The translations under genes and the position numbers were made by a program. From Trueperaceae bacterium (GTDB taxonomy: Bacteria > Deinococcota > Deinococci > Deinococcales > Trueperaceae), in contig JAXHNB010000008.1 of NCBI GenBank assembly GCA_034520945.1, positions 64,001-128,000 of the forward strand: 64,000 nt of DNA. The letters run 5' to 3'. A model generated the notes under the pieces. It saw only the letters and a list, made by a program, of their open reading frames with translations. It was not told where the DNA came from and ran no database searches. Position 1 is the stretch's first letter, and each line of letters opens with the position of its first letter. Below, one piece after another: positions 715 to 25,608 of the stretch.

Positions 715-1569
715 ATGTCGCAAGAGCATCGACGGGAGAAGGAGAAGGACGGCCCGCTGGCCGCGGTCATCGAGAAAGCGACGCGTGCCGAGCCCAAACT
801 CAACAAGGCTGTCGTGCGTGCCATGCGCGTCCTTGCCGAGTTCGACGAGGATACGCCCGAATGGACCGTCAACGCCCTGTCACGTCGCCTCGGCATCGCG
901 AAGAGCAGCGTGAGCACGGTCTTGGCGACACTCGCAGAGTTCGATCTCGTGGCACGCGCGGAGGACGGGAGCGGACGGTATCGGCTCGGGCTTCGCTGTA
1001 TGGAAATGGGGTACTTGTCCTCGTCGCGGCTACAGGTACGTGACCTCGCGTTCCCACTGCTAGAACGGTTGTTGGGGGAGACCCAGCAGATCGTCTATCT
1101 GGCCATCCCCTATCAGCGTGAAGTGCTGTACGTCGAGGCGATGTATCCCCCGCACCGGAGGATCAACTTCTCGTCGCAAGGGCGGAGAGCGCCCCTGTAT
1201 TGCACGGGAATCGGTAAGGCGATCCTCGCCTTCCTGCCCGTCGAGGATCAACGGGATTACCTGTCCCGTGCCCCCTTCCCCAGGCTCACGTCCAATACGC
1301 TTTGTCGCCGCGAAGAGCTTGAACGCGAGATCGAGGAAACGCATGCTCGGGGGTACGCAACGGACCACGAGGAGCGTGAACACGGGATTCGATGCGTGGC
1401 GTCGCCCGTTCTCTCACGTTTCGGACAGGTCGTGGCCGCAGTGAGCATCAGCGGGTCTAGCGACGAGATCGACGAAGACCGAATTCCGCAGTTGGCGCAA
1501 ATCGTGCACGCGACCGCTGTGGACGTGGGTCGCAAATTGCAGTTTGCCGGTCATGGAGGTCGCCCGTGA
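715..1569 (+). CDS. IclR family transcriptional regulator
   Basis: N-terminal HTH (LSRRLGIAKSSV); C-terminal PLYCTGIGKAILAF and RGYATDHEE...GIRCVASPV effector-domain motifs. Confidence 0.95.
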   Translation: MSQEHRREKEKDGPLAAVIEKATRAEPKLNKAVVRAMRVLAEFDEDTPEWTVNALSRRLGIAKSSVSTVLATLAEFDLVARAEDGSGRYRLGLRCMEMGYLSSSRLQVRDLAFPLLERLLGETQQIVYLAIPYQREVLYVEAMYPPHRRINFSSQGRRAPLYCTGIGKAILAFLPVEDQRDYLSRAPFPRLTSNTLCRREELEREIEETHARGYATDHEEREHGIRCVASPVLSRFGQVVAAVSISGSSDEIDEDRIPQLAQIVHATAVDVGRKLQFAGHGGRP

Positions 1570-1747
1570 CGTACGGGTGCCCCTCCTGTCGCGGCTTGCG
1601 CTCGGTTTGCGTCCAGCTGGACGCAGCGATCGGTTGGAGGAAGCGCATGGCTTCGGAGAGGAGGTGGTGGCAAGGAAGCGCAGAGTGATCAGCCAGTCAG
1701 GTACGTCGACCCGGGCACGCCACGAATCCCGAAGCAAAGGAGTTCAA

Positions 1748-3001
1748 GTGAAGCACCTAAGATTCCTACTCGTTACCCTCGTGCTCGTCATCGGTGGAAG
1801 CGTACTCGCGCAAACCGTTCTTCGGATGAATACGCTGTTCCATAGTGGCGACGCGCAGGCAATGGTTCGCATCGTCGACGAGTTCAACGAGGTCCACGAC
1901 GACGTTCAAATCGAGCTGACGCAGGGACAGTGGTCGGACTACTACGCTCAGCTTTACAACGCCGTCGTGGCCGACAACGCCCCGCACATCGGTGTCGTTC
2001 ACACCACGTTGCTTCCGCAGATGGCCCCCGCCCTCACCCCCCTCGTCGACGGCCCTGCGGGGAACCTCCTGACGGCGGCCGGCATCGATCCGGATGACTA
2101 CATCGCCAACCTCTGGGACGCCGGTACGTATGAGGGGCAGCGCTACTTGGTACCCCTGGACACGCACATGTTTGGCCTTTGGTACAACAAGGACATCTTC
2201 GCCGAAGCGGGACTGGACCCCGAGAGCCCACCCCAAACGCGCGAAGAGTTCGAGGCCGCCGCCGACGCAATCGTCGCGAACACGGACGCGTATGGTTTCC
2301 ATCCTGCCGAAGATGCGCTACCGCGGAAACTGCGCCGCGCATGGTACTACCTGTACTGGCAGCAAGGCGGAGAACTGTTCGACGCTGACCATAGCGAAGC
2401 GACCTTCAACAACGACGCTGGGCTTCAGGCTTGCGAATACCTGGCGGACATGGTCGGTGAGCGGGGTTGGAACATTCCCTCGGGTGATGGCTTTGCGCAG
2501 TTCAGCGCGGGCGACCTCGGCATGCTCGTGGCAGGCAACTGGTACTACTGGACGGCCGAAGAAGCTGGATTGAACTATGGGTTCGCCAAGATGCCCGTGT
2601 TCTTCGATGAGCTCCGGACGTGGGGAAACAGCCACAATCTGGTGATCCCCCAACAGCCCGACGGCACGTCCACGGAAACGTACGTCGCGGCGGCCGAGGC
2701 CATTCGCTGGATCACGGAGAACAGCGACACCTGGGGCATCTATGGTGGGCACATTCCCGCCCACAGCCAGGCTCGCGCAAGTGAAGCCCTGCGGGAATCG
2801 GATACCTGGCAGAAGTCACTCGGAACGTTCGCCGAGATGGCCGAGCAGGGCGCCGTCCACTATCCCATCACGCACGAGCGCGCATCCGAGCTCGAAGAGC
2901 CCATCACCGTCAACATTCAACAAGCCTACAACGGCAGCATTACGTGCCAGGAGGCTCTTGACCGGGCCGAGTCGGGCGTCAATACCATTCTCGGCAACTG
3001 A
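1748..3001 (+). CDS. Sugar ABC transporter extracellular solute-binding protein
   Basis: GTG start after AAGGAG; signal peptide ending VLA-Q; LWYNKDIFAEAGLDPESPPQT motif of family-1 SBPs. Confidence 0.92.
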   Translation: MKHLRFLLVTLVLVIGGSVLAQTVLRMNTLFHSGDAQAMVRIVDEFNEVHDDVQIELTQGQWSDYYAQLYNAVVADNAPHIGVVHTTLLPQMAPALTPLVDGPAGNLLTAAGIDPDDYIANLWDAGTYEGQRYLVPLDTHMFGLWYNKDIFAEAGLDPESPPQTREEFEAAADAIVANTDAYGFHPAEDALPRKLRRAWYYLYWQQGGELFDADHSEATFNNDAGLQACEYLADMVGERGWNIPSGDGFAQFSAGDLGMLVAGNWYYWTAEEAGLNYGFAKMPVFFDELRTWGNSHNLVIPQQPDGTSTETYVAAAEAIRWITENSDTWGIYGGHIPAHSQARASEALRESDTWQKSLGTFAEMAEQGAVHYPITHERASELEEPITVNIQQAYNGSITCQEALDRAESGVNTILGN

Positions 3002-18032: not shown

Positions 18033-19463
18033 CTACCTCCCCCCGGGCGTGGCGCCATGGGTGGCGTCGCCGACGCCGTTGCGTGGGCGCGCCTCGCTTG
18101 GTGGCGGGACGCGCGGGAGCTGAACCGTTGCGACGGTTCGTACGCCAGGCGTGGAGGTTAGCCACACCTGACCGCCTAGGCTGTCGATGACGTGGCGCAC
18201 GATCGCCAAACCTAGGCCCGTGCCGGCCCGAGCGTGCGACCCGGTCGCGTACGGTTCGAACACCCGCTCGAGGTCTTCGGCCGGGATGCCGACCCCCTCG
18301 TCCTGGACCTCGATCGATGCGGCCTCGTCGCTTGCGTGCGTCGCGATGGTGACGCTGCCGCGATCGCCTGGCAGCGCGCGCATGGCGTTGGTTGCCAGAT
18401 TCATCAACACCTGGTGTAGCTCCCCTTCGGTCGCATGCACACATGCCCCTTCGGCGTTCAGGACGACATGTACATGCACCCCGTGCGGCTGGGACGGTCG
18501 GAGCAACGCCGCGACCTCCTGCACGAGCGGGTCGACCGCGACAGGTGCACGCTCGGCGTTATCGCGACCGAAGGCGACCATGCGGCGCGAGAGCTCGCGA
18601 GCGCGTTCGGCCGCCGTCACGACCAGGTTCAAGCGCTGGCGTTGCGTGCTCCCCGGATCGGCGCTGTCCCGGGCTGCCGTGCCTGCCGCCAGCATCGGCA
18701 CCAGGAGGTTGTTGAGGTCGTGCGCCACCCCGCTCGCCAGCGTGGCCACGGCGCGAGCCTTTCCTGCCGCCACGAGCTCGCGTTCCAGGCGCTGTCGTTC
18801 CTCCAGCGACGCCTGCAGGCGATGCGTCGCGTCATGTAGTTCTTCCGCGTGGCGCCGAAGCCCGCCGAACACATGGAGGATCGCTGAGGACAACAGCACC
18901 GCCAGGAATGTCACGCTTCCGGCGCCTGCCGCCCAGGTCGGCAGCGTGTATGGCTGACCCGGGACGCCCGGAGGGCGCGTCGTGACGCCCGTTTGCAGGG
19001 CAACACCGTAGGCGACCGCGAGCACCGCGAGCCCGCCGACCGCCGCCCATGCGCCGGGCCTCCCGAACAGCAGGGCGGCCAGTACGGGGAGCGCCAGCAT
19101 CCAGGCGAGCCCTGCGCCGATGGGGCCGGCCAGGGCGGTGAGCGCTGCCGAAAACGCGAACCACAAGGCCAGGAAGGTGACGGCCCGCGTGCGGTAGGGA
19201 AGGGCACGCCACGATGCCAAGATGCCCACGGCGGCCCACCCGAGCGTGTTGAGCACGACGATCGTCCACACGCCGTCGGAGGCGGCTGCGTACGTGCCGG
19301 GGACGTATGCGACGGCGGCGACGAGGGCCGTGGTGGTGAGCACGCCCTGCAATGCCTGGGTGCGCCAGCGGGCCAGCGCGGTCGTGGGATCGGGGACCGC
19401 GTGCGACGCGTCGGCTCGGTCGGCGCGGCCCTGGGCGACCTCAGGCGTCGACGTTCGGCGCAT
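18033..19463 (-). CDS. Membrane sensor histidine kinase
   Basis: About 6 TM helices; H-box GVAHDLNNL, N-box LMNLATNA, DEGVG, FEPY, GTGLGL. Confidence 0.92.
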   Translation of the reverse strand: MRRTSTPEVAQGRADRADASHAVPDPTTALARWRTQALQGVLTTTALVAAVAYVPGTYAAASDGVWTIVVLNTLGWAAVGILASWRALPYRTRAVTFLALWFAFSAALTALAGPIGAGLAWMLALPVLAALLFGRPGAWAAVGGLAVLAVAYGVALQTGVTTRPPGVPGQPYTLPTWAAGAGSVTFLAVLLSSAILHVFGGLRRHAEELHDATHRLQASLEERQRLERELVAAGKARAVATLASGVAHDLNNLLVPMLAAGTAARDSADPGSTQRQRLNLVVTAAERARELSRRMVAFGRDNAERAPVAVDPLVQEVAALLRPSQPHGVHVHVVLNAEGACVHATEGELHQVLMNLATNAMRALPGDRGSVTIATHASDEAASIEVQDEGVGIPAEDLERVFEPYATGSHARAGTGLGLAIVRHVIDSLGGQVWLTSTPGVRTVATVQLPRVPPPSEARPRNGVGDATHGATPGGR

Positions 19464-20643
19464 CGGTGTCCCTTCGCTCGAGCCAGGCGTGGAGGTCTTC
19501 CTCGTACATGGGAGGGGCCAAGTGGTACCCCTGAGCGGCATCGCAGCCCAACTCGGTCAGGTACGCGAATACCTCGGCGTCCTCGACCCCTTCGGCGGTC
19601 ACGCGCAGACCGAGCCCGTGCGCCAGGCTGACGGTCGCGCGGACGATGGTTCGCGACTCGCGCGAGGTGGCCGCGTTCATGACGAAGCGGCGGTCGATCT
19701 TCAGCTCGGAGAACGGCTGTCGCGCCAGTTGCGTCAAGGTGGAGTGGCCCGTTCCGAAGTCGTCGATCGCCAGTCCGACGCCCTTGATGCGCAAGCGGGT
19801 GAGGATCGCCAACGCCTCCACCTCGTCGTCCGGCGTGGCGGTCTCCGTCAACTCCAGCACGACCCGGGCCAGGGCGATCCGATGCGTGGCGCAGAGACGT
19901 TCCAACCGGTCGACGATCGTGGCGTCCGTGAGGGACCGCGCCGATAGGTTCAACGCGACGTGCGTGGTGCCGTTCGGGTCCGTGCGTGCCAGCCAAGCCA
20001 GCGCCGTGCCGAACACGTGGTCGCTCAAGGCGTCGATCAGACCCTCGCGCTCGGCCAGCGGCACGAAGACGTCGGGCGGTACCACGCCGAGGGTCGGGTG
20101 GTGCCATCGCGCCAGGGCCTCGAATCCCAGCACGGCCCCTCCGGCGCAGGCGATCTTCGGCTGGTACGCCACGCCGATCTGCCTCGATTCCAGCGAGGCG
20201 CGAAGGGCCGCCACGTCGGGGCGGCCGCGCACCTGCGCCTCCGTGGCGCCGCCGCTCGTGGCGCCCGCGTGGACGGCGAGCAACGCGTGCAACGCCCGGG
20301 CCTCGAACGGCTTTGGCAGCGTGCCTGCGAGGCGCAAGCCGTGTTCCACGGCGCTTTGCCGCGCCGCCTCGAGAACTCGGCGTTCTAGCCCACTCGACAG
20401 AATCACGGAGCCCGCGTAGCCGTGGTCGGCCAACCGCCGCAGAACCTCGATCCCGTCCGTGCCAGGCATGTCGAGGTCCAGAACGACGTGGCTGGCGTCC
20501 GATGTCCGCAACGCGTCCCAGAACGCCTCGAATCGCGACGTCACCTGGACGGGGTAGCCCGCGTCCTCGACGATCATGCCGATCGTCGCGCCGACGAGCT
20601 CGTCGTCGTCCAGGACCAGGACATGGCTGGCGGGTTCGGTCAC
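19441..20643 (-). CDS. Response regulator with REC + EAL c-di-GMP phosphodiesterase domain
   Basis: VLDDD, LDLDMPGTDG, KPF; YQPKI, FEALARW, ELTET, IDDFGTG, ELKIDR, AEGVE, AQGY. Confidence 0.95.
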   Translation of the reverse strand: MTEPASHVLVLDDDELVGATIGMIVEDAGYPVQVTSRFEAFWDALRTSDASHVVLDLDMPGTDGIEVLRRLADHGYAGSVILSSGLERRVLEAARQSAVEHGLRLAGTLPKPFEARALHALLAVHAGATSGGATEAQVRGRPDVAALRASLESRQIGVAYQPKIACAGGAVLGFEALARWHHPTLGVVPPDVFVPLAEREGLIDALSDHVFGTALAWLARTDPNGTTHVALNLSARSLTDATIVDRLERLCATHRIALARVVLELTETATPDDEVEALAILTRLRIKGVGLAIDDFGTGHSTLTQLARQPFSELKIDRRFVMNAATSRESRTIVRATVSLAHGLGLRVTAEGVEDAEVFAYLTELGCDAAQGYHLAPPMYEEDLHAWLERRDTDAPNVDA

Positions 20644-21641: not shown

Positions 21642-21669
21642 CCGCCCGCGTCGACCCCGAAACGGATGC

Positions 21670-21706
21670 GCGACCTGGCGCCGTGAACATAGCGGCGCCA
21701 GGTCGC
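21670..21706 (+). terminator. 14-bp perfect hairpin downstream of the peroxiredoxin
   Basis: GCGACCTGGCGCCG-N9-CGGCGCCAGGTCGC. Confidence 0.75.
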
Positions 21707-21858
21707 CGTCGTTCGTTCGGTTACGCCGTGCGGGAGGAGCACGACCGGGCGTGACGAGCAGATCGAGCGCTCCCTGGGCCGGCTGCGGGAAGGTGCCATC
21801 GCAACGGCGTCACGTCGGACACCGTTGTACAGTGAGGGACGATAGGTGGGTGGTTCCG

Positions 21859-22896
21859 ATGAGTTCCAGTGCCGATCGCCGAGCTGCCGTCGCCGCCGTC
21901 GCGCAACGCACGACGGCACGTCTCTACGAACGCTTTCCCTCACTGACGGATCGGTACGGAGACGCGGGCCGGGCTCGTTGCGAAGAGGACGTTCGCTTTC
22001 ACGCCGGGTACCTGCTGGCGGCCGTCCGAAACGATTCGAGCGACTACTTCCGGAGTTACGTGCGGTGGTCGCGTCAGTTGCTGGCGGGGTACGGCATGGA
22101 CGCCGATATGCTCGAGGCCACCCTCGAGGTTCTCGGCGAGGAGGTCCGGTCCGAGCCCGTGCTGGTGCGTGACCGCGAGCGCGCCCTCGCGGCAGCCCTC
22201 GAGGCAGGGATCGCGGCGCTGCATGATGCCAACGACGAGGATGTGCTGGGCCCTGCCGTGTCGCGTGCGTTGGTCGCGCCGGCCTCGTTTGCGCAGGAAC
22301 TGATCCGCGAGCCGTCCCCGCAACTGTGGCGCCGCCTCGAAGCCGAGCTCGTGGAGGGGCGCAGCTACGAAGACGTCGCGGTCGGCATGATCGAGCCGGC
22401 AATGTACCAGGTCGGGCTTCTGTGGCAACAGGGCGAGATCTCGGTCGCGCTCGAACACCTGGCGACCAGCAAGGCGTCGTTGCTGTTGACGCGCGCATTC
22501 GCGGTGGCCAGCACGGACGCGTCGCTGGGCGAGCGGCGGGCCGTCTTCGCGGCGGTGGAGGGGAACCGCCATTCGATGGGGTTGCGGATGATCGCGGACA
22601 CCTTCTCGCTTCACGGCTGGGACGCCGACTACTTGGGCGCGGACGTCCCCGTTCGTGACCTGTTGACGCATGTCGACGCGGTTCGACCGGAACTCCTCGG
22701 CCTCGCCGCTACCATGCCGAACGACCTGGAGCGGATGGCGGACGTCATCGAGCGCGTCCGGCACGAATTCGGCCCCCAGGCGCCGCAGATCCTGGTCGGG
22801 GGCCTTCCGTTGCGCGAGATGCGCGACGCGTGGCGCGCGCTCGGCGCCGACGCTTGGGCCGCCGATGCCAGGGAGGCGGTCGATGCCGCCGGATGA
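21859..22896 (+). CDS. Phycobiliprotein-like globin domain fused to a CarH-type cobalamin-binding photoreceptor domain
   Basis: N-term LYERFP..RYG...RCEED (globin/phycocyanin-like, C41-x2-D44); W-x9-EH (WQQGEISVALEH); NRHSMG, LGADVP, LVGG B12 Rossmann motifs; no DNA-binding domain. Confidence 0.88.
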   Translation: MSSSADRRAAVAAVAQRTTARLYERFPSLTDRYGDAGRARCEEDVRFHAGYLLAAVRNDSSDYFRSYVRWSRQLLAGYGMDADMLEATLEVLGEEVRSEPVLVRDRERALAAALEAGIAALHDANDEDVLGPAVSRALVAPASFAQELIREPSPQLWRRLEAELVEGRSYEDVAVGMIEPAMYQVGLLWQQGEISVALEHLATSKASLLLTRAFAVASTDASLGERRAVFAAVEGNRHSMGLRMIADTFSLHGWDADYLGADVPVRDLLTHVDAVRPELLGLAATMPNDLERMADVIERVRHEFGPQAPQILVGGLPLREMRDAWRALGADAWAADAREAVDAAG

Positions 22897-23905
22897 CGTG
22901 ACGCGCCGACAGGATGTATCGACGGCGGCAGACCTGGTCCCGTACCTCGGGGAGGAACGATGGCTCGCGCTGCTCGAGCCGTTCTCGGCGGTGGTGTTCG
23001 GCGTCCTCGACGACGAGAGTCGCGTCGTGCGCACGAACCGGGGTTTCGACGCCCTGCTCGGACGGGGGGACGACACCTCGCCCGACGAGCGCTTGGCGTC
23101 GCGATTCGTCCAACCGACGTTCGCGGACCTTCGCGACGCCGAGCCCGACGAGAAGGCCGCGACGTTCCGCGGAATCCTGACGGTGCTGGACGAACGCGGC
23201 CGAAGCCACTCGGTGAACGGCGTGGCGCTGCGATTCGACACCGTCGTCATCGTGCTCGCCGAGCATGACGTGGCCGAGTACCGCACCATGTTCGAAGAGA
23301 TGCTCGAACTCAACGAGGAGCTCTCTCAGACGCACCGCGAGCTGATTCGGGCCCAGCGCGAACTGAAACGCCAGCGCGACCTTCTCGAGCACGAGTCGAC
23401 GACGGACGAGCTGACCGGCCTGCGCAACCGCAGGTTCCTGATGGAGCGAATGGGCGACGAGATCGCCCGCGCCGAGCGCCGTGACGTACCGCTCACGGTG
23501 GTGGCCTTCGACATCGATACGTTCAAAGCGGTCAACGACACCTTCGGTCACGCGGCTGGCGACGATGCCCTCAAGGCCGTGGCCGACGTGTTCCGGACCG
23601 AGAGTCGGGCCTACGACGTCGTCGGCCGGATGGGCGGCGACGAGTTCATCGCGGTGCTGCCCGATACGGCGCTCGACGACGCCGTCGCCTTGGCGGAACG
23701 GCTGTGCGCGGGCGTGCGCGACGTCGAGCTTTCGAGCGTGCCTCGAGGGCTGACCGCCAGCTTCGGCGTGGCGGCCCGCCGCAGCGGCGACGACCTGCAC
23801 GGGCTGCTCCGGCGGGCCGACCGGGCCCTGTACCGAGCCAAGAGGGCCGGAAGGAATCGCGTGCATGCCTTCGCCGGCGAGGACGACGCGGAGGCGGACA
23901 CGTGA
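22883..23905 (+). CDS. Diguanylate cyclase (PAS-like + coiled coil + GGDEF)
   Basis: TDELTGLRNRR, DIDTFKAVNDTFGH..GD, RAYD I-site, RMGGDEF, ADRALYRAK..GRN; overlaps the upstream gene. Confidence 0.95.
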   Translation: MPPDDVTRRQDVSTAADLVPYLGEERWLALLEPFSAVVFGVLDDESRVVRTNRGFDALLGRGDDTSPDERLASRFVQPTFADLRDAEPDEKAATFRGILTVLDERGRSHSVNGVALRFDTVVIVLAEHDVAEYRTMFEEMLELNEELSQTHRELIRAQRELKRQRDLLEHESTTDELTGLRNRRFLMERMGDEIARAERRDVPLTVVAFDIDTFKAVNDTFGHAAGDDALKAVADVFRTESRAYDVVGRMGGDEFIAVLPDTALDDAVALAERLCAGVRDVELSSVPRGLTASFGVAARRSGDDLHGLLRRADRALYRAKRAGRNRVHAFAGEDDAEADT

Positions 23906-24210
23906 TCATGGTGGTGTCGCGCATCCGCATCGTCGCGGGCGATCCCGACGCGGTCGAACGGCAGTACCGCGAACGCGTGGGCCACGTCGATCGCGCCGAC
24001 GGCTTCCTCGGCATGGAGGTTCTGCGCGACCAGGACGATCCGGCGTCGTTCTGGGTGCAGGTGCGCTTCCGGGACCGCGCCGCGTACGACCGCTACAAAA
24101 GGAGCGACGCGTTTCGCGACGCGCACGCTCGCCTCGCCCTTCAGGACGAGAAGGTCCGAATCGACCCCGACGCGTACGACGTGCACGTGCTCGATGTCGT
24201 GGCTCGCTGA
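23902..24210 (+). CDS. ABM-family monooxygenase, IsdG/HmoA/MhuD-like (heme-binding)
   Basis: About 100 aa; GFLGMEVLR, S-x-x-F-x-x-AH (SDAFRDAH) with the heme-ligand His; GTGA overlap with the GGDEF gene. Confidence 0.8.
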   Translation: MIMVVSRIRIVAGDPDAVERQYRERVGHVDRADGFLGMEVLRDQDDPASFWVQVRFRDRAAYDRYKRSDAFRDAHARLALQDEKVRIDPDAYDVHVLDVVAR

Positions 24211-24913
24211 GCTTCGGGGCGATACGGCCGAGGCGTTCGCCTCGCTGCAGGCTTCGGCGCCGGCGTCGCTTCCAGACGAACTGTCGGAACGCCACGGCCG
24301 CCTCGGGTCGGCCTCGGCCACCATGCGGACCGAAGCGTGGCGCGGACCCGTCCTCGCCTGGGCACGCTGCGCCCGCCTCGACGCGCCACCTCGCAGCCGC
24401 GTCCTGTCGGTGCTGACGCTGCCCGACCCGAGCTATGACCTGCCGATGTTCGGTGCCGAGATCGTCGAGATCGGCGGGACCGTCACTGTCGTCGCGATCG
24501 ATTGGATTCCGGTCGCGCCGGACGGGCGTCACCTGGCGCCCCTGGCGGACGTGCGCGAGCGCCATCGCGACTTGCCGGAGGGGGGCGAGCTCCCCGCCTG
24601 GGCGGCCGCATGGTTCTCGCCCCATGCGATCTTCTCGCGACCGGCAGGCACGGTGTCGATCGACGGGATCGTGCACGCCTACCGGGACGCGCTCGGCGCC
24701 TACGTCGGCACCTGCCGTGACGCCGAGCCGGCCGGCGACCCGGTCGCGACCTGGGAGGCGCAGCGCCGCTACTGCGACGCGCACCGACGCGACGATCCGG
24801 GCAGCGCCATGCTGGCGCGGGCGTTCGGTGCGGCGTGGAGCGAGCGGTACGCGGAGGACGTCCTGTTTCCCGTGGCGCGCCCTCCCAACGGGGATGGCTG
24901 GTCTTCGTCGTAA
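24194..24913 (+). CDS. Ferredoxin-dependent bilin reductase (PcyA/PebA/PebB/HY2 superfamily), divergent
   Basis: PDPSYDLPMFGAEIV, AIDWIP, ELPAWAAAWFSP..IFSRP, QRRY...DDPG..ML.RAFG..W...Y...VLF. Confidence 0.85.
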   Translation: MSWLAELRGDTAEAFASLQASAPASLPDELSERHGRLGSASATMRTEAWRGPVLAWARCARLDAPPRSRVLSVLTLPDPSYDLPMFGAEIVEIGGTVTVVAIDWIPVAPDGRHLAPLADVRERHRDLPEGGELPAWAAAWFSPHAIFSRPAGTVSIDGIVHAYRDALGAYVGTCRDAEPAGDPVATWEAQRRYCDAHRRDDPGSAMLARAFGAAWSERYAEDVLFPVARPPNGDGWSSS

Positions 24914-24997
24914 TTCAGCGCCGACCCTTCATGCCCGTCTCGGTGACGTGACGGTGGCACTCTGCGTGCCATGATTGGTGGCAGAGGAGGTTGGCTC

Positions 24998-25261
24998 ATG
25001 CCGGCAACTTCGAAGAAGAATCTGCATGTTCCGCTGCCGCCGGAGCTTCATTCGGCCCTGAAGGAGCAGTCGAACCGCCTTCGAACGCCCGCTACGACCC
25101 TTGCTCGTGAGGCGATCGAGGAGTGGATTCGCCTTCGCAAGCGGGAACAGGTCGCTCAGGAACTCCGCGCATACGCCGATGAGATGGCGGGGACCGACGC
25201 GGACGTGGATCCGGCCTGGGAGGATGCGGGCGTCGACTCGTGGCTCGAGAACGACCCTTGA
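24998..25261 (+). CDS. RHH-type antitoxin
   Basis: KKNLHVPLPPELH...TTLAREAIEEW; GAGGAGG RBS; TGGCAC-N5-GTGCCA repeat upstream; coupled to a toxin. Confidence 0.8.
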   Translation: MPATSKKNLHVPLPPELHSALKEQSNRLRTPATTLAREAIEEWIRLRKREQVAQELRAYADEMAGTDADVDPAWEDAGVDSWLENDP

Positions 25262-25608
25262 GGCGGGGCGAGGTTCATTGGGTGAATCTTCACCCGAGGA
25301 CCGGAAGTGAGCAGCGTGGGCACCGTCCGGCCGTGATCGTGTCCCACGATGTGTTCAACGTGCACCCGAGGTGGAACAGCTTGATCGTCGTCCCCATGAG
25401 CACGTCACAACGGCAGCTTCGCAATCAAGGGTCTTCGGTACGGATCGAGGCCGGGGAGAGCGGCCTACGCCGTACTTCCGTGGCGCTGTGCCACCAGGTC
25501 ACGACCATCGACCGCAGCAAGGTAGGTCAACCGGTGGGGATGCTCTCCTTGGCTGCGCTGCAACGGGTGGAGGACGGGTTGCGGGCGGCGTTGGACCTGC
25601 TGCCATGA
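25258..25608 (+). CDS. mazF: PemK/MazF family toxin
   Basis: RRGEVHWVNL.P..GSEQRGHRPAVIVS, VVPMST, CHQVTTIDRS. Confidence 0.92.
   Translation: MRRGEVHWVNLHPRTGSEQRGHRPAVIVSHDVFNVHPRWNSLIVVPMSTSQRQLRNQGSSVRIEAGESGLRRTSVALCHQVTTIDRSKVGQPVGMLSLAALQRVEDGLRAALDLLP

Follow-up and report, generated by a model that had tools for sequence, protein, structure and literature searches.

A photocobilin gene in a four-gene operon with genes for a GGDEF cyclase, a haem-degrading-type protein and a bilin reductase in a Trueperaceae bacterium

Genes and features at the locus

The window, meaning the whole 64,000-nucleotide stretch of DNA analysed, contains four genes that follow one another in the order photocobilin, GGDEF cyclase, ABM protein and ferredoxin-dependent bilin reductase (FDBR) (Table 1). 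The joints between them are a 14-nt overlap, a 2-nt gap and a 17-nt overlap, and the four overlapping or abutting genes form one operon. The first overlap lies between the cyclase start (ATG at 22883, with GGGAGG just before it at 22871-22876) and the sensor stop codon (22894-22896). The start assigned to the photocobilin (P0001), the ATG at 21859, agrees with that of a 91%-identical homologue (P0002), which begins MSSR.

Independent assemblies of public data bridge the joints of the operon. Two such records come from run X3, one (record 14) spanning 22705-23996 and the other (record 15) spanning 24058-24639. In run X6, a relative with approximately 90-93% identity has the peroxiredoxin, sensor and cyclase genes on one contig and the ABM and FDBR genes on another. 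A low-depth contig of that run (depth 2.1) joins 21975 to 24186.

The GC content of the operon (0.67-0.71) was the same as that of its surroundings, so there was no compositional sign of recent transfer. An Rfam search of the intergenic region upstream of the sensor gene gave nothing of note (the best match, Pxr, had an E-value of 0.13 and was far below the gathering score). A promoter and terminator scan detected no sigma-70-like site on the + strand upstream, and no promoter or terminator was found. The best named matches of the upstream peroxiredoxin were to Thermus or Thermaceae proteins (68-70%).

Table 1. Features of the photocobilin operon. Positions are those of the window.
Feature	Position	Strand	Description and basis
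Upstream intergenic region	21642..21858	+	follows peroxiredoxin gene; presumed promoter region; no recognised element
Stand-alone photocobilin, P0001	21859..22896	+	345 aa; domains in order: photoglobin, four-helix bundle, Rossmann B12; ORF, Pfam, SasPcob match, AlphaFold2
Photoglobin (bilin-binding-type globin) domain	21859..22233	+	residues 1-125; PDB profile search, domain model, structural matches, conservation
Cys41 (TGC)	21979-21981	+	translation
Asp44	21988-21990	+	translation
Trp70	22066-22068	+	translation
Four-helix bundle cap	22282..22506	+	residues 142-216; Pfam PF02607 at residues 161-203, helices in model
W-x9-EH adenosyl-pocket motif, Trp189	22423-22425	+	conservation, SasPcob alignment
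W-x9-EH adenosyl-pocket motif, Glu199-His200	22453-22458	+	conservation, SasPcob alignment
Rossmann B12-binding domain	22537..22881	+	residues 227-341; Pfam PF02310, conservation
His238	22570-22572	+	predicted lower axial ligand, in N-x-H-x-x-G; aligns with SasPcob His108
Diguanylate cyclase	22883..23905	+	340 aa; putative PAS-like N-domain, coiled-coil linker, GGDEF domain; Pfam, motifs from translation
ABM-fold protein, IsdG/MhuD/HmoB haem-degrading type	23908..24210	+	100 aa; putative haem oxygenase; Pfam ABM, profile search
FDBR, pre-PcyA-like	24194..24913	+	239 aa; Pfam PF05996, PDB matches

Assignment of P0001 to the photocobilin family

The photoglobin-B12 or photocobilin family was described computationally in 2021 (Schneider 2021, PMC8717448) and experimentally in 2024 (Zhang 2024, PMC10979010; PDB 8J2W, 8J2X, 8J2Y). 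Judged by its sequence, P0001 is a further member of this published family and not a new kind of protein. In a phmmer search of PDB sequences, its best match among solved structures was the photocobilin SasPcob (8J2W/8J2X; E = 1.4e-21), which was matched separately by residues 163-342 (B12 half) and by residues 8-115 (globin half), with approximately 25% identity over the aligned parts. AlphaFold2 modelled full-length P0001 with a pLDDT of 93.4 and a pTM of 0.91. A Foldseek search with this model returned B12-domain matches only, because the domain order is swapped.

The original prediction had described this ORF as a phycobiliprotein-like globin with a Cys-x2-Asp motif fused to a CarH-type half. 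The 345-aa translation contains the strings it quoted, including Cys41, Asp44, W-x9-EH and His238. We found no DNA-binding or enzyme domain in P0001 with Pfam, including no HTH, in line with its statement that a MerR HTH is missing. Its further statement that there is no output domain holds for P0001 itself, but not for the locus, where the adjoining and overlapping gene for the putative PAS-like GGDEF cyclase encodes the probable output.

The globin-first order of P0001 is already described in PMC10979010 and in PMC8717448. It is also common: in an exhaustive protein search, from which family size was taken, 450 cluster representatives matched at E ≤ 1e-30, and a word-index search gave only 24 relatives. 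Conservation was counted over 134 full-length representatives, namely the 150 matches listed minus 16 whose length fell outside 320-400 aa. The equivalents of the functional residues of SasPcob (Asp44, Trp70, Trp189, Glu199-His200 and His238) were kept in 127 to 134 of the 134.

P0001 resembles SasPcob from Saccharothrix syringae (8J2W dark, 8J2X light; PMC10979010) in combining a stand-alone CarH-type AdoCbl module with a phycobiliprotein-like globin. It differs in its reversed domain order, with the globin first, and in several residues. Opposite Cys41, SasPcob has Thr when the ungapped profile alignment is used and the Ala next to it when the sequences are aligned pairwise. Asp267 of P0001 aligns with SasPcob His137, whose salt bridge reaches the bilin across the dimer. 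In addition, no bilin reductase is reported with SasPcob. The characterised photocobilins were loaded with added biliverdin (PMC10979010), and the peer-review file of that paper mentions for S. syringae only a mycobilin-type haem oxygenase, encoded elsewhere in the genome.

The photocobilin-diguanylate cyclase fusion AbDPcob (8J2Y; PMC10979010) pairs this kind of sensor module with a GGDEF cyclase. Its c-di-GMP synthesis increases in light, with more than 10-fold activation, and SasPcob and AbPcob modulate a cyclase domain in trans (PMC10979010). Unlike AbDPcob, P0001 and the cyclase are the products of two translationally coupled genes, and the cyclase carries a putative PAS-like N-domain of its own. 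In AbPcob the key Asp position is occupied by His, and biliverdin binding is poor, whereas P0001 keeps the Asp. The accessible part of PMC8717448, a computational work, describes a phycocyanin-related non-haem globin fused to the domains B12-binding_2 and B12-binding, which stand "either before or after" the globin, in signalling operons. GGDEF and ABM monooxygenase figure among the domains and neighbouring genes that it associates with this globin, and a bilin reductase in photoglobin operons is not described in that part. The earlier proposal of a two-chromophore sensor acting through protein contacts agrees with the family literature; both domains of P0001 match SasPcob, and the predicted ligand residues are kept.

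The globin domain resembles phycobiliproteins

Pfam gave no match to residues 1-150 of P0001 at E ≤ 0.1, and PF00502 (Phycobilisome) did not match the protein at that threshold. A profile of the N-terminal domain (A3, 31 sequences) was more informative. Searched against the PDB, it placed the photocobilins 8J2W (8.4e-10) and 8J2Y (1.5e-8) on top, followed by phycocyanin alpha chains (2VJR_A, 1.6e-6), and the best 60 rows listed were all photocobilins, phycobiliproteins or the allophycocyanin-derived smURFP. The likeness of the globin domain to phycobiliproteins is beyond chance.

The structural check proposed with the original prediction, run on residues 1-130, gave a globin fold. The AlphaFold2 model of these residues had a pLDDT of 94.0. 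Its best match by VIA-align was the SasPcob globin domain (8J2W residues 226-345; Z 14.9, rmsd 2.9 Å over 117 residues), followed by smURFP (Z 13.8) and allophycocyanins (Z 13.7). Foldseek with the globin domain alone gave a TM-score of 0.71, with a best E-value of 1.7e-2 and no match at E ≤ 0.001. The fold assignment was made from the TM-score of approximately 0.7 together with the VIA-align Z-scores and the sequence profile.

The residues expected around a bilin are well conserved. Asp44, which aligns with SasPcob Asp270, was found in 127 of 134 relatives, and Trp70, which aligns with SasPcob Trp296, in 131. In SasPcob, Asp270 binds the bilin pyrrole nitrogens and Trp296 is at the bilin-corrin contact (PMC10979010). 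Cys41 was less conserved (Cys in 90/134); among globin-first photocobilins, Cys was present at the Cys-x-x-Asp site in 62 of 76 loci. This attachment motif is CXRD in phycobiliproteins and CXQD in photoglobins (PMC10151467), and in P0001 it reads Cys41-Glu-Glu-Asp44. Located at the phycobiliprotein attachment position, Cys41 may form a thioether with a bilin. Such a link would be unprecedented in the photocobilin family, because neither of the two photocobilins that have been characterised has the Cys, and both hold biliverdin non-covalently and flipped by approximately 180 degrees relative to phycobiliproteins (PMC10979010).

Compared with phycocyanin and allophycocyanin, then, P0001 shares the globin fold (Z 12-14), the profile similarity and the Cys-x-x-Asp motif at the bilin site. 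It differs in having CEED rather than CXRD, in lacking light-harvesting partners and in not matching PF00502. It also lacks the N-terminal pairing helices, and structural matches begin at approximately residue 35 of the phycobiliprotein chains.

The B12 module is of the CarH type

The C-terminal half of P0001 matched two Pfam domains, B12-binding_2 (residues 161-203, E = 3.2e-7) and B12-binding (residues 227-341, E = 6.8e-15). The W-x9-EH motif, which is typical of light-dependent CarH-like receptors (PMC10979010), was complete and nearly invariant, with Trp189 in 134, Glu199 in 133 and His200 in 134 of the 134 relatives. Trp189 aligns with SasPcob Trp61, and Glu199-His200 with Glu71-His72. 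The predicted lower-ligand motif reads Asn236-Arg-His238-Ser-Met-Gly241, and its His and Gly were found in 134/134. The original prediction had regarded the Asn as standing in place of a usual Glu or Asp. This did not hold up: at that position the relatives have Asn (66), Glu (55) or Asp (11), and Asn236 is no anomaly because Asn is the commonest residue there in the family.

One position of the module is unusual. Position 283 is Ala in P0001 and Ser in 131 of 134 relatives, which counts against the explanation that we favour below; Gly314-Gly315 is kept. The homologue P0002 also has Ala at this site. In the general B12-binding signature DxHxxG...SxL...GG, Ala283 falls at the Ser of SxL.

The module is like that of CarH and LitR (for example 5C8A and 5C8D) in its four-helix bundle and Rossmann AdoCbl fold, its W-x9-EH motif and its His lower ligand. 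The N-terminus of P0001 differs, with a globin domain in place of the MerR-type HTH. An HTH-B12 protein of the CarH/LitR type is encoded separately in the same genome. The genome also has a PduO-type adenosyltransferase, so AdoCbl can be made from cobalamin.

The adjoining cyclase

The second gene encodes a GGDEF domain (PF00990, E = 4.5e-42), and its translation contains RAYDVVGRMGGDEF, an intact GGDEF motif with an RxxD site five residues upstream. The N-domain of the cyclase had no Pfam match; Atlas features and structure give a lead that it may be PAS-like. A complex prediction of P0001 with this N-domain (residues 1-170) gave a score of 0.00 and a mark of 0.32, which favours neither binding nor its absence.

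A haem-degrading-type protein and a bilin reductase

The locus is at its most informative in the last two genes of the operon, which the original prediction did not include. The third gene encodes a protein that matched Pfam ABM (E = 6.1e-17). Its NCBIfam matches to IsdG-type haem oxygenase and HmuQ were weak and below cut-offs (for example, 34.7 versus 115 bits). A profile of 38 sensor-linked ABM proteins (A4), searched against the PDB, matched TT1380 (4.4e-18) and then HmoB (9.9e-13), IsdI (1.7e-11), IsdG (3.9e-11) and MhuD (9.2e-11). His73, aligned with the haem ligand, was invariant (38/38). In all 38 aligned members, Ser occupies the position aligned with an Asn of TT1380, and the protein in the window has Phe where most relatives have Trp. 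We take the aligned Asn to be the catalytic Asn of IsdG-type enzymes, and we assume that the conserved Trp and the axial His likewise have their IsdG roles. The characterised enzymes IsdG and MhuD are known to give staphylobilin and mycobilin, not biliverdin, which is a point against the model below, in which the ABM product is the substrate of the FDBR.

The fourth gene encodes an FDBR that matched PF05996 over profile positions 7-228 of 228 (E = 8.1e-41; 140.6 bits versus a cut-off of 31). Its best PDB sequence matches were 6QWQ (4.4e-19) and Synechocystis PcyA (1.5e-18). All three catalytic residues of PcyA, Glu76, His88 and Asp105 in Synechocystis numbering (PMC10151467), are replaced, by Ala60, Ser72 and Glu89, respectively. 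In the published signatures, pre-1 enzymes lack Asp105 and typically have Glu, pre-2 enzymes have Asn and Asp, and pre-3 enzymes have Thr and Asp (PMC10151467). With its Ser72 and Glu89, the FDBR of the window agrees with the Glu signature of the pre-1 type. The nearest relative was P0027 (47% identity), followed by P0028-P0030 (37-39%), which have the pre-2-like Asn and Asp and lie in BBAG-2-type clusters. The pre-1 enzyme that has been tested was poorly active in co-expression assays (PMC10151467), and 3(E)-phytochromobilin is reported as the product of characterised pre-1 and pre-2 enzymes (10.64898/2026.05.08.723791). Products of pre-PcyA enzymes serve as bilin ligands of BBAG globins (PMC10151467).

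We surveyed the genome (97.4% complete) for other proteins that make or bind bilins. It contains one FDBR and one photoglobin domain, both encoded in this operon, and there were no matches to PF01126 haem oxygenase, PHY or PAS_2. A six-frame search of the whole genome for Phycobilisome (PF00502) gave 0 matches. There is no other recognisable bilin-binding protein and no recognisable canonical haem oxygenase. The ABM protein is the sole member of the A4 profile in the genome, and the FDBR is the only one among 364 genomes of the class.

Recurrence of the gene neighbourhood

We scanned 80 loci with homologous sensors, using a 16-row alignment as the query (a 121-row alignment was too diverse). 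Immediately downstream of the sensor, and on its strand, 56 of the 80 have a homologue of the cyclase N-domain. An ABM homologue was immediately upstream, again on the sensor's strand, in 43 loci and downstream in one, and three more were found with Pfam; these neighbour counts are drawn from related genomes and are not independent. An FDBR was present in 0/80.

The ABM gene adjoins the FDBR gene in four loci, namely the window and three metagenomic clusters of the BBAG-2/pre-2 type. Two of these (L088 and L090) have genes for a B12 protein, a globin, an ABM protein and an FDBR in a row; the third (L089) has globin, ABM and FDBR genes on a contig that begins at the globin. In a tree of ABM proteins, the copy in the window grouped in a clade with the three FDBR-linked ABM proteins (support 100/98), on a long branch (1.58) and with deviant composition.

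The operon is comparable to the published clusters of BBAG-2, B12 protein and pre-2 FDBR (PMC10151467; 10.64898/2026.05.08.723791), in which an FDBR occurs with a globin and a B12 protein that correspond by homology to the halves of a photocobilin. The BBAG-2 globins bind bilin (PMC10151467), and one globin from the clusters of the relatives of the window's FDBR carries the BBAG-2 RGMC motif. In the window, in contrast, a single polypeptide of the photoglobin type combines globin and B12 protein, the CxxD Cys is present and the RGMC Cys is absent (Asp81). A cyclase gene intervenes, Ser and Glu take the place of the pre-2 Asn and Asp in the FDBR, and the host is not a myxobacterium. Term searches of the main texts of PMC10151467 and 10.64898/2026.05.08.723791 found no ABM gene beside the FDBR gene.

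A model for the operon and alternatives to it

We consider it likely that P0001 is the light-sensing subunit in a four-gene operon whose other genes provide its output enzyme and, probably, the supply of its pigment, and that it acts as a self-supplied B12-plus-bilin sensor controlling c-di-GMP synthesis. In this model, the IsdG-type ABM protein would open haem to a bilin, and the pre-PcyA-like FDBR would reduce that bilin to a phytobilin with electrons from ferredoxin. The bilin would bind in the globin pocket, with Asp44 holding the pyrrole nitrogens, Trp70 at the contact with the corrin and Cys41 possibly forming a thioether. AdoCbl would bind base-off/His-on at His238, under the cap formed by Trp189 and Glu199-His200. 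Light absorbed by either pigment would lead to breakage of the Co-C bond and a change in the quaternary state of P0001, and direct contact with the putative PAS-like domain of the co-translated cyclase would pass this change on and alter c-di-GMP synthesis.

A more specific version of the model is tentative, and we think it rather less likely than not to be correct: that the native red-absorbing pigment of P0001 is not free biliverdin and is instead a phytobilin made by the operon, through IsdG-type opening and FDBR reduction, and attached through Cys41.

Part of the evidence could be read differently. The globin might carry little or no bilin and mainly shield or position the corrin, so that P0001 would be a green-light B12 sensor and the FDBR product would serve another acceptor or purpose. 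Biliverdin occupancy of AbDPcob was only approximately 20%, the authors suggest a changed role for its globin, and in crystal structures the globin domain covers the corrin edge (PMC10979010). Cys41, moreover, is not universal (90/134). We nevertheless regard this reading as unlikely. The weak binding of AbPcob was ascribed to His replacing Asp270 (PMC10979010), and P0001 keeps both Asp44 and Trp70; the FDBR and haem-degrading-type genes share its operon; and the genome encodes no other recognisable bilin-binding protein. The B12 module, for its part, could be a corrinoid protein with a dark function, carrying methyl groups or sensing redox state or B12 availability, rather than a photoreceptor. 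The best NCBIfam rows for P0001 were indeed the methyltransferase corrinoid proteins MtgC (E = 3.9e-14) and MtbC (E = 2.6e-12), all far below cut-offs. With W-x9-EH complete in P0001 and invariant in the family, SasPcob as the best match among solved structures and no methyltransferase genes nearby, we judge a dark function to be very improbable.

The role assigned to the ABM protein could also be read differently. Instead of a haem oxygenase, this protein could be a helper for bilins or other tetrapyrroles, such as a sensor, a carrier or a lyase-like factor for attachment, with the bilin coming from an unrecognised route or from outside. The Ser at the presumed catalytic Asn site in 38/38 members, the Phe for the conserved Trp in the window and NCBIfam scores far under the equivalog cut-offs all point that way, as do ABM domains fused to longer proteins in other loci (for example, a 363-aa ORF in L067). 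Against it, the best PDB matches of the profile after TT1380 are the haem-degrading HmoB, IsdI, IsdG and MhuD, all aligned members keep the His that matches their haem ligand, the ABM gene abuts an FDBR gene in four loci, and the genome lacks a canonical haem oxygenase. On balance a helper role seems quite unlikely, and we prefer haem opening by the ABM protein.

The locus bears on which bilin photocobilins carry in the cell and on the source of that bilin. If the phytobilin-Cys41 version of the model is correct, one small protein would carry phycobiliprotein-style Cys-bilin chemistry beside AdoCbl, and the operon would be a self-sufficient, four-gene light-to-c-di-GMP cassette. A branch of the IsdG family would also feed bilin reductases, which would imply a biliverdin-type product. 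The operon can be reconstituted as a unit, because the sensor, the probable output enzyme, the haem-degrading-type protein and the bilin reductase are encoded together, in a genome with no other haem oxygenase or bilin-binding protein that we could recognise. Reconstitution could address the supply of FDBRs by IsdG-type proteins, the covalent Cys-bilin link and the communication between photocobilin and cyclase. The relevance to phycobiliprotein origins raised in the original prediction is not new, as the link is already described in PMC10151467. The locus also joins two published types of cluster, the photocobilin-cyclase type and the BBAG-2/B12 protein/pre-2 FDBR type.

The sensor belongs to a known family

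All of the strings quoted in the original prediction were found in the translation of P0001, the 345-residue sensor, and the codon for Cys41 is TGC at 21979-21981, where it had been placed. A longer reading from a GTG codon at 21751 is possible but gains no support from P0002, a homologue with 91% identity, which starts MSSR. Pfam placed B12-binding_2 at residues 161-203 and B12-binding at residues 227-341 and gave no match within residues 1-150. It gave no HTH domain in P0001, in agreement with the absence that had been claimed.

The top match of P0001 among PDB sequences (phmmer) was SasPcob, the photocobilin of Saccharothrix syringae (8J2W/8J2X; E = 1.4e-21). Residues 163-342 matched its B12 module and residues 8-115 separately matched its C-terminal globin domain, so the two proteins have both domains in common, in reversed order. 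A profile (A3) built from 31 N-terminal domains found 8J2W (8.4e-10) and 8J2Y, the photocobilin-diguanylate cyclase fusion AbDPcob (1.5e-8); phycocyanin and allophycocyanin chains came next after the photocobilins, from 1.6e-6 onward. AlphaFold2 gave confident models of full-length P0001 (pLDDT 93.4, pTM 0.91) and of residues 1-130 (pLDDT 94.0). The latter model was closest to the SasPcob globin domain (Z 14.9), with smURFP and allophycocyanins at Z 13-14, which bears out the phycobiliprotein-like globin first proposed from the sequence. With Foldseek, this short helical domain gave TM values of ~0.7 with a best E of only 1.7e-2, and the full-length model matched B12 domains only.

We numbered SasPcob residues as chain index + 6, set from Trp61, Glu71 and His72. 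Sequence alignments pair Trp189 of P0001 with Trp61, Glu199-His200 with Glu71-His72, His238 with His108, Asp44 with Asp270 and Trp70 with Trp296, all SasPcob residues with described roles (PMC10979010). SasPcob has no Cys at the position of Cys41: the ungapped profile alignment puts a Thr there, and the pairwise alignment the adjacent Ala. We consider P0001 to be almost certainly a photocobilin.

Passages in three papers describe this family. Schneider et al. 2021 defined photoglobins, with B12 domains "either before or after" the globin, a conserved Asp, a frequent Cys, and GGDEF proteins and an ABM monooxygenase among the neighbours (PMC8717448). According to Zhang et al. 2024, AdoCbl and biliverdin are both ligands of SasPcob and AbDPcob, and red light works via the bilin. 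Light converts the SasPcob dimer to a monomer, photocobilin domains alter GGDEF domain activity in trans, and predicted photocobilins form groups that carry the AdoCbl domain N- or C-terminally (PMC10979010). Rockwell et al. 2023 linked photoglobins to BBAG globins and phycobiliprotein origins and noted a CXQD motif (PMC10151467). The initial idea of a two-chromophore sensor acting by protein contacts is supported by the photocobilin literature; it was right, and these papers show that the kind was already known. P0001 is an uncharacterised member of it.

Conservation of the globin-first type

An exhaustive protein search with P0001 recovered 10,510 cluster representatives at E ≤ 1e-3, of which 450 reached E ≤ 1e-30, and most of the 150 representatives listed are collinear with P0001 end to end. 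Conservation was determined for the 134 of these 150 that are 320-400 aa long, leaving out 16 (B12-only proteins of ~220-250 aa, other short entries, and fusions of 562-819 aa). Trp189, His200, His238, Gly241 and Gly314-Gly315 are present in all 134, Glu199 in 133, Trp70 in 131 and Asp44 in 127. Position 41 is Cys in 90, Thr in 17, Ala in 6 and Ser in 6, and the residue preceding x-His is Asn in 66, Glu in 55 and Asp in 11. At two positions of the B12 domain P0001 and P0002 depart from nearly all relatives: they have Ala283 (22705-22707), which is Ser in 131/134 relatives, and Asp289 (22723-22725), which is His in 80 and Gln in 39.

The genome collection contained 479 sensor relatives, and we retained the best 80 loci. 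These are mostly from Pseudomonadota, with some from Planctomycetota, Chloroflexota and Verrucomicrobiota, all at ≤40% identity. Among the 76 of these 80 with a match spanning the motif, position 41 is Cys in 62. Flagged separately was 1102-2040 (-) of locus L004 (genome G000, contig C6).

The sensor gene heads a four-gene operon

The genes for the sensor, a GGDEF cyclase, an ABM protein (IsdG-type) and a ferredoxin-dependent bilin reductase (FDBR) lie head to tail.

Features of the operon and its surroundings in the window
Feature	Position	Strand	Remarks
MASE11-type membrane histidine kinase and REC-EAL c-di-GMP phosphodiesterase	18033-19541 and 19441-20643	-	~1.2 kb upstream of operon, past peroxiredoxin gene
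Sensor (P0001)	21859-22896	+	First operon gene; 345 residues
Cyclase	22883-23905	+	14-nt overlap with sensor; GGGAGG six bases before start
ABM protein	23908-24210	+	2-nt gap after cyclase
FDBR	24194-24913	+	17-nt overlap with ABM gene
Ribbon-helix-helix protein	24971-25261	+	Weak match, E 0.0035
PemK/MazF-type toxin	25240-25608	+	E 1.4e-27

Both an intact GGDEF motif and an RxxD site are present in the cyclase. Pfam gave no match for its 170-residue N-domain; a PAS-like character, from Atlas features and structure, is a lead only. The operon joints were confirmed in public assemblies: in run X3, one contig piece covers 22705-23996 and another 24058-24639 at ~98% identity. In a relative from a metagenome run, X6 (~90-93% identity), peroxiredoxin, sensor and cyclase are on one contig and ABM and FDBR on another. 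A 250-nt contig of X6 (depth 2.1) joins 21975 to 24186, from sensor start to FDBR start, skipping 2210 bases; this may be a deletion variant in the relative or an assembly artefact. The best named matches of the upstream peroxiredoxin are from Thermus (68-70%); judging by this one protein, the host probably belongs to Deinococcota. Immediately beyond the FDBR gene, the ribbon-helix-helix and toxin genes make up a type II toxin-antitoxin-like pair.

The genome (3.47 Mb, 10 contigs, 97.4% complete) also encodes a PduO-type adenosyltransferase and, on another contig, a CarH/LitR-type HTH-B12 protein distinct from P0001. Whole-genome searches found no PF01126 haem oxygenase, no phytochrome domains (PHY, PAS_2) and no phycobilisome protein, and the only photoglobin domain and only ABM protein of the sensor-linked family were those of the operon. 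By these searches, the FDBR product has P0001 as its only recognisable acceptor, and no candidate haem-opening enzyme other than the ABM protein is present.

The ABM protein and the FDBR resemble those of BBAG-2-type clusters

The ABM profile matched TT1380 first among PDB sequences (4.4e-18), then HmoB, IsdI, IsdG and MhuD. One His, invariant across 38 aligned sensor-linked ABM proteins, aligns with a His of TT1380 and HmoB in profile alignments, where the IsdG family has its haem ligand; a Ser is invariant at the site of TT1380 Asn. The window protein is divergent, with 16-35% identity to the other 37 and Phe replacing a nearly invariant Trp. It is 40-43% identical to ABM proteins of three metagenomic loci (L088, L089 and L090), and the tree groups it with these three (support 100/98), separately from the 37 ABM proteins that lie upstream of sensors. 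Its branch in the tree is long and its composition deviant.

No second FDBR was found in this genome or across 364 class genomes, including 10 of the same genus, and the photoglobin profile matched in at least 3 of the 364 (up to 12 candidates scored per genome). A 5.8-billion-protein index contained only six relatives, at 85%, 46% and 37-39% identity, with one distant at 26%. Glu76, His88 and Asp105 of PcyA align with Ala60, Ser72 and Glu89. Judged by sequence, the site is pre-PcyA-like, with Glu89 as typical for pre-1, and the 37-39% relatives carry Asn and Asp, as in pre-2 enzymes (signatures from sections of PMC10151467 and 10.64898/2026.05.08.723791).

Scanning metagenomes with the FDBR alignment gave four loci. 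In L088 and L090, genes for a B12-binding protein, a globin, an ABM protein and an FDBR are consecutive with overlapping ends; L089 has the last three, its contig beginning at the globin. The L088 globin (246 aa) has the BBAG-2 motif SRGMC, and its CxxD Cys is replaced by Ala. In L088 (4255-9944), the four genes are followed by those for a PAS-PAS histidine kinase and a PAS-SpoIIE phosphatase, which suggests that BBAG-2-type clusters like this one also feed signalling outputs.

Most simply, the operon would join a photocobilin-cyclase pair to an ABM-FDBR pair of BBAG-2/pre-2 type. It is an unreported arrangement built from known cluster types. The main texts of PMC10151467 and 10.64898/2026.05.08.723791 do not mention an ABM gene beside pre-2-type FDBRs, and a literature search found six publications mentioning photocobilin, none of them together with IsdG.

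Neighbours at homologous sensor loci

We searched the 80 retained loci with the window proteins (tblastn). An ABM homologue immediately precedes the sensor, in the same orientation, in at least 43 and is downstream in at least one; a homologue of the cyclase N-domain immediately follows the sensor, in the same orientation, in at least 56. These are lower bounds because some loci are incomplete. No FDBR was detected at any of these 80 loci, incomplete ones included. Pfam analysis of 64 upstream ORFs from the 32 loci that lacked such an ABM match added three ABM proteins; PF01126 haem oxygenases were absent from these ORFs. An ABM gene adjoins the sensor in 42 of 62 loci with Cys at position 41, compared to 4 of 14 without, an association that is a lead only because the genomes are related. 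In some sensor loci the ABM domain lies within a longer ORF instead of forming a free protein of ~99 aa (L067, 6865-7953, 363 aa; L050, 3251-3811, 187 aa). An Atlas cluster of 330 aa has ABM in 95% and PAS_4 in 20% of members.

A proposed chain from haem to cyclase

P0001 is very likely an AdoCbl-dependent light sensor, and bilin binding is predicted with nearly as much confidence. We think it probable that the genes act as a chain in which the ABM protein would open haem, the FDBR would reduce the bilin, and P0001 would hold this bilin and AdoCbl and, in light, act on the cyclase. Control of the adjacent cyclase by P0001, taken by itself, is somewhat less secure, though still favoured, and a covalent bilin link at Cys41 is a tentative suggestion. 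Several points raise doubt about the chain. Characterised photocobilins hold biliverdin non-covalently and flipped (PMC10979010), and P0001 has Ala for the family Ser at 283. In addition, the ABM protein deviates from IsdG catalytic residues, and the FDBR is without those of PcyA; IsdG and MhuD are not known to yield biliverdin. What makes the operon moderately interesting is that it would allow one to test, in a compact natural setting, where photocobilin bilin comes from and whether the Cys common in the family is used. Together, the light-linked GGDEF cyclase and the upstream kinase and REC-EAL phosphodiesterase might belong to a single c-di-GMP circuit.
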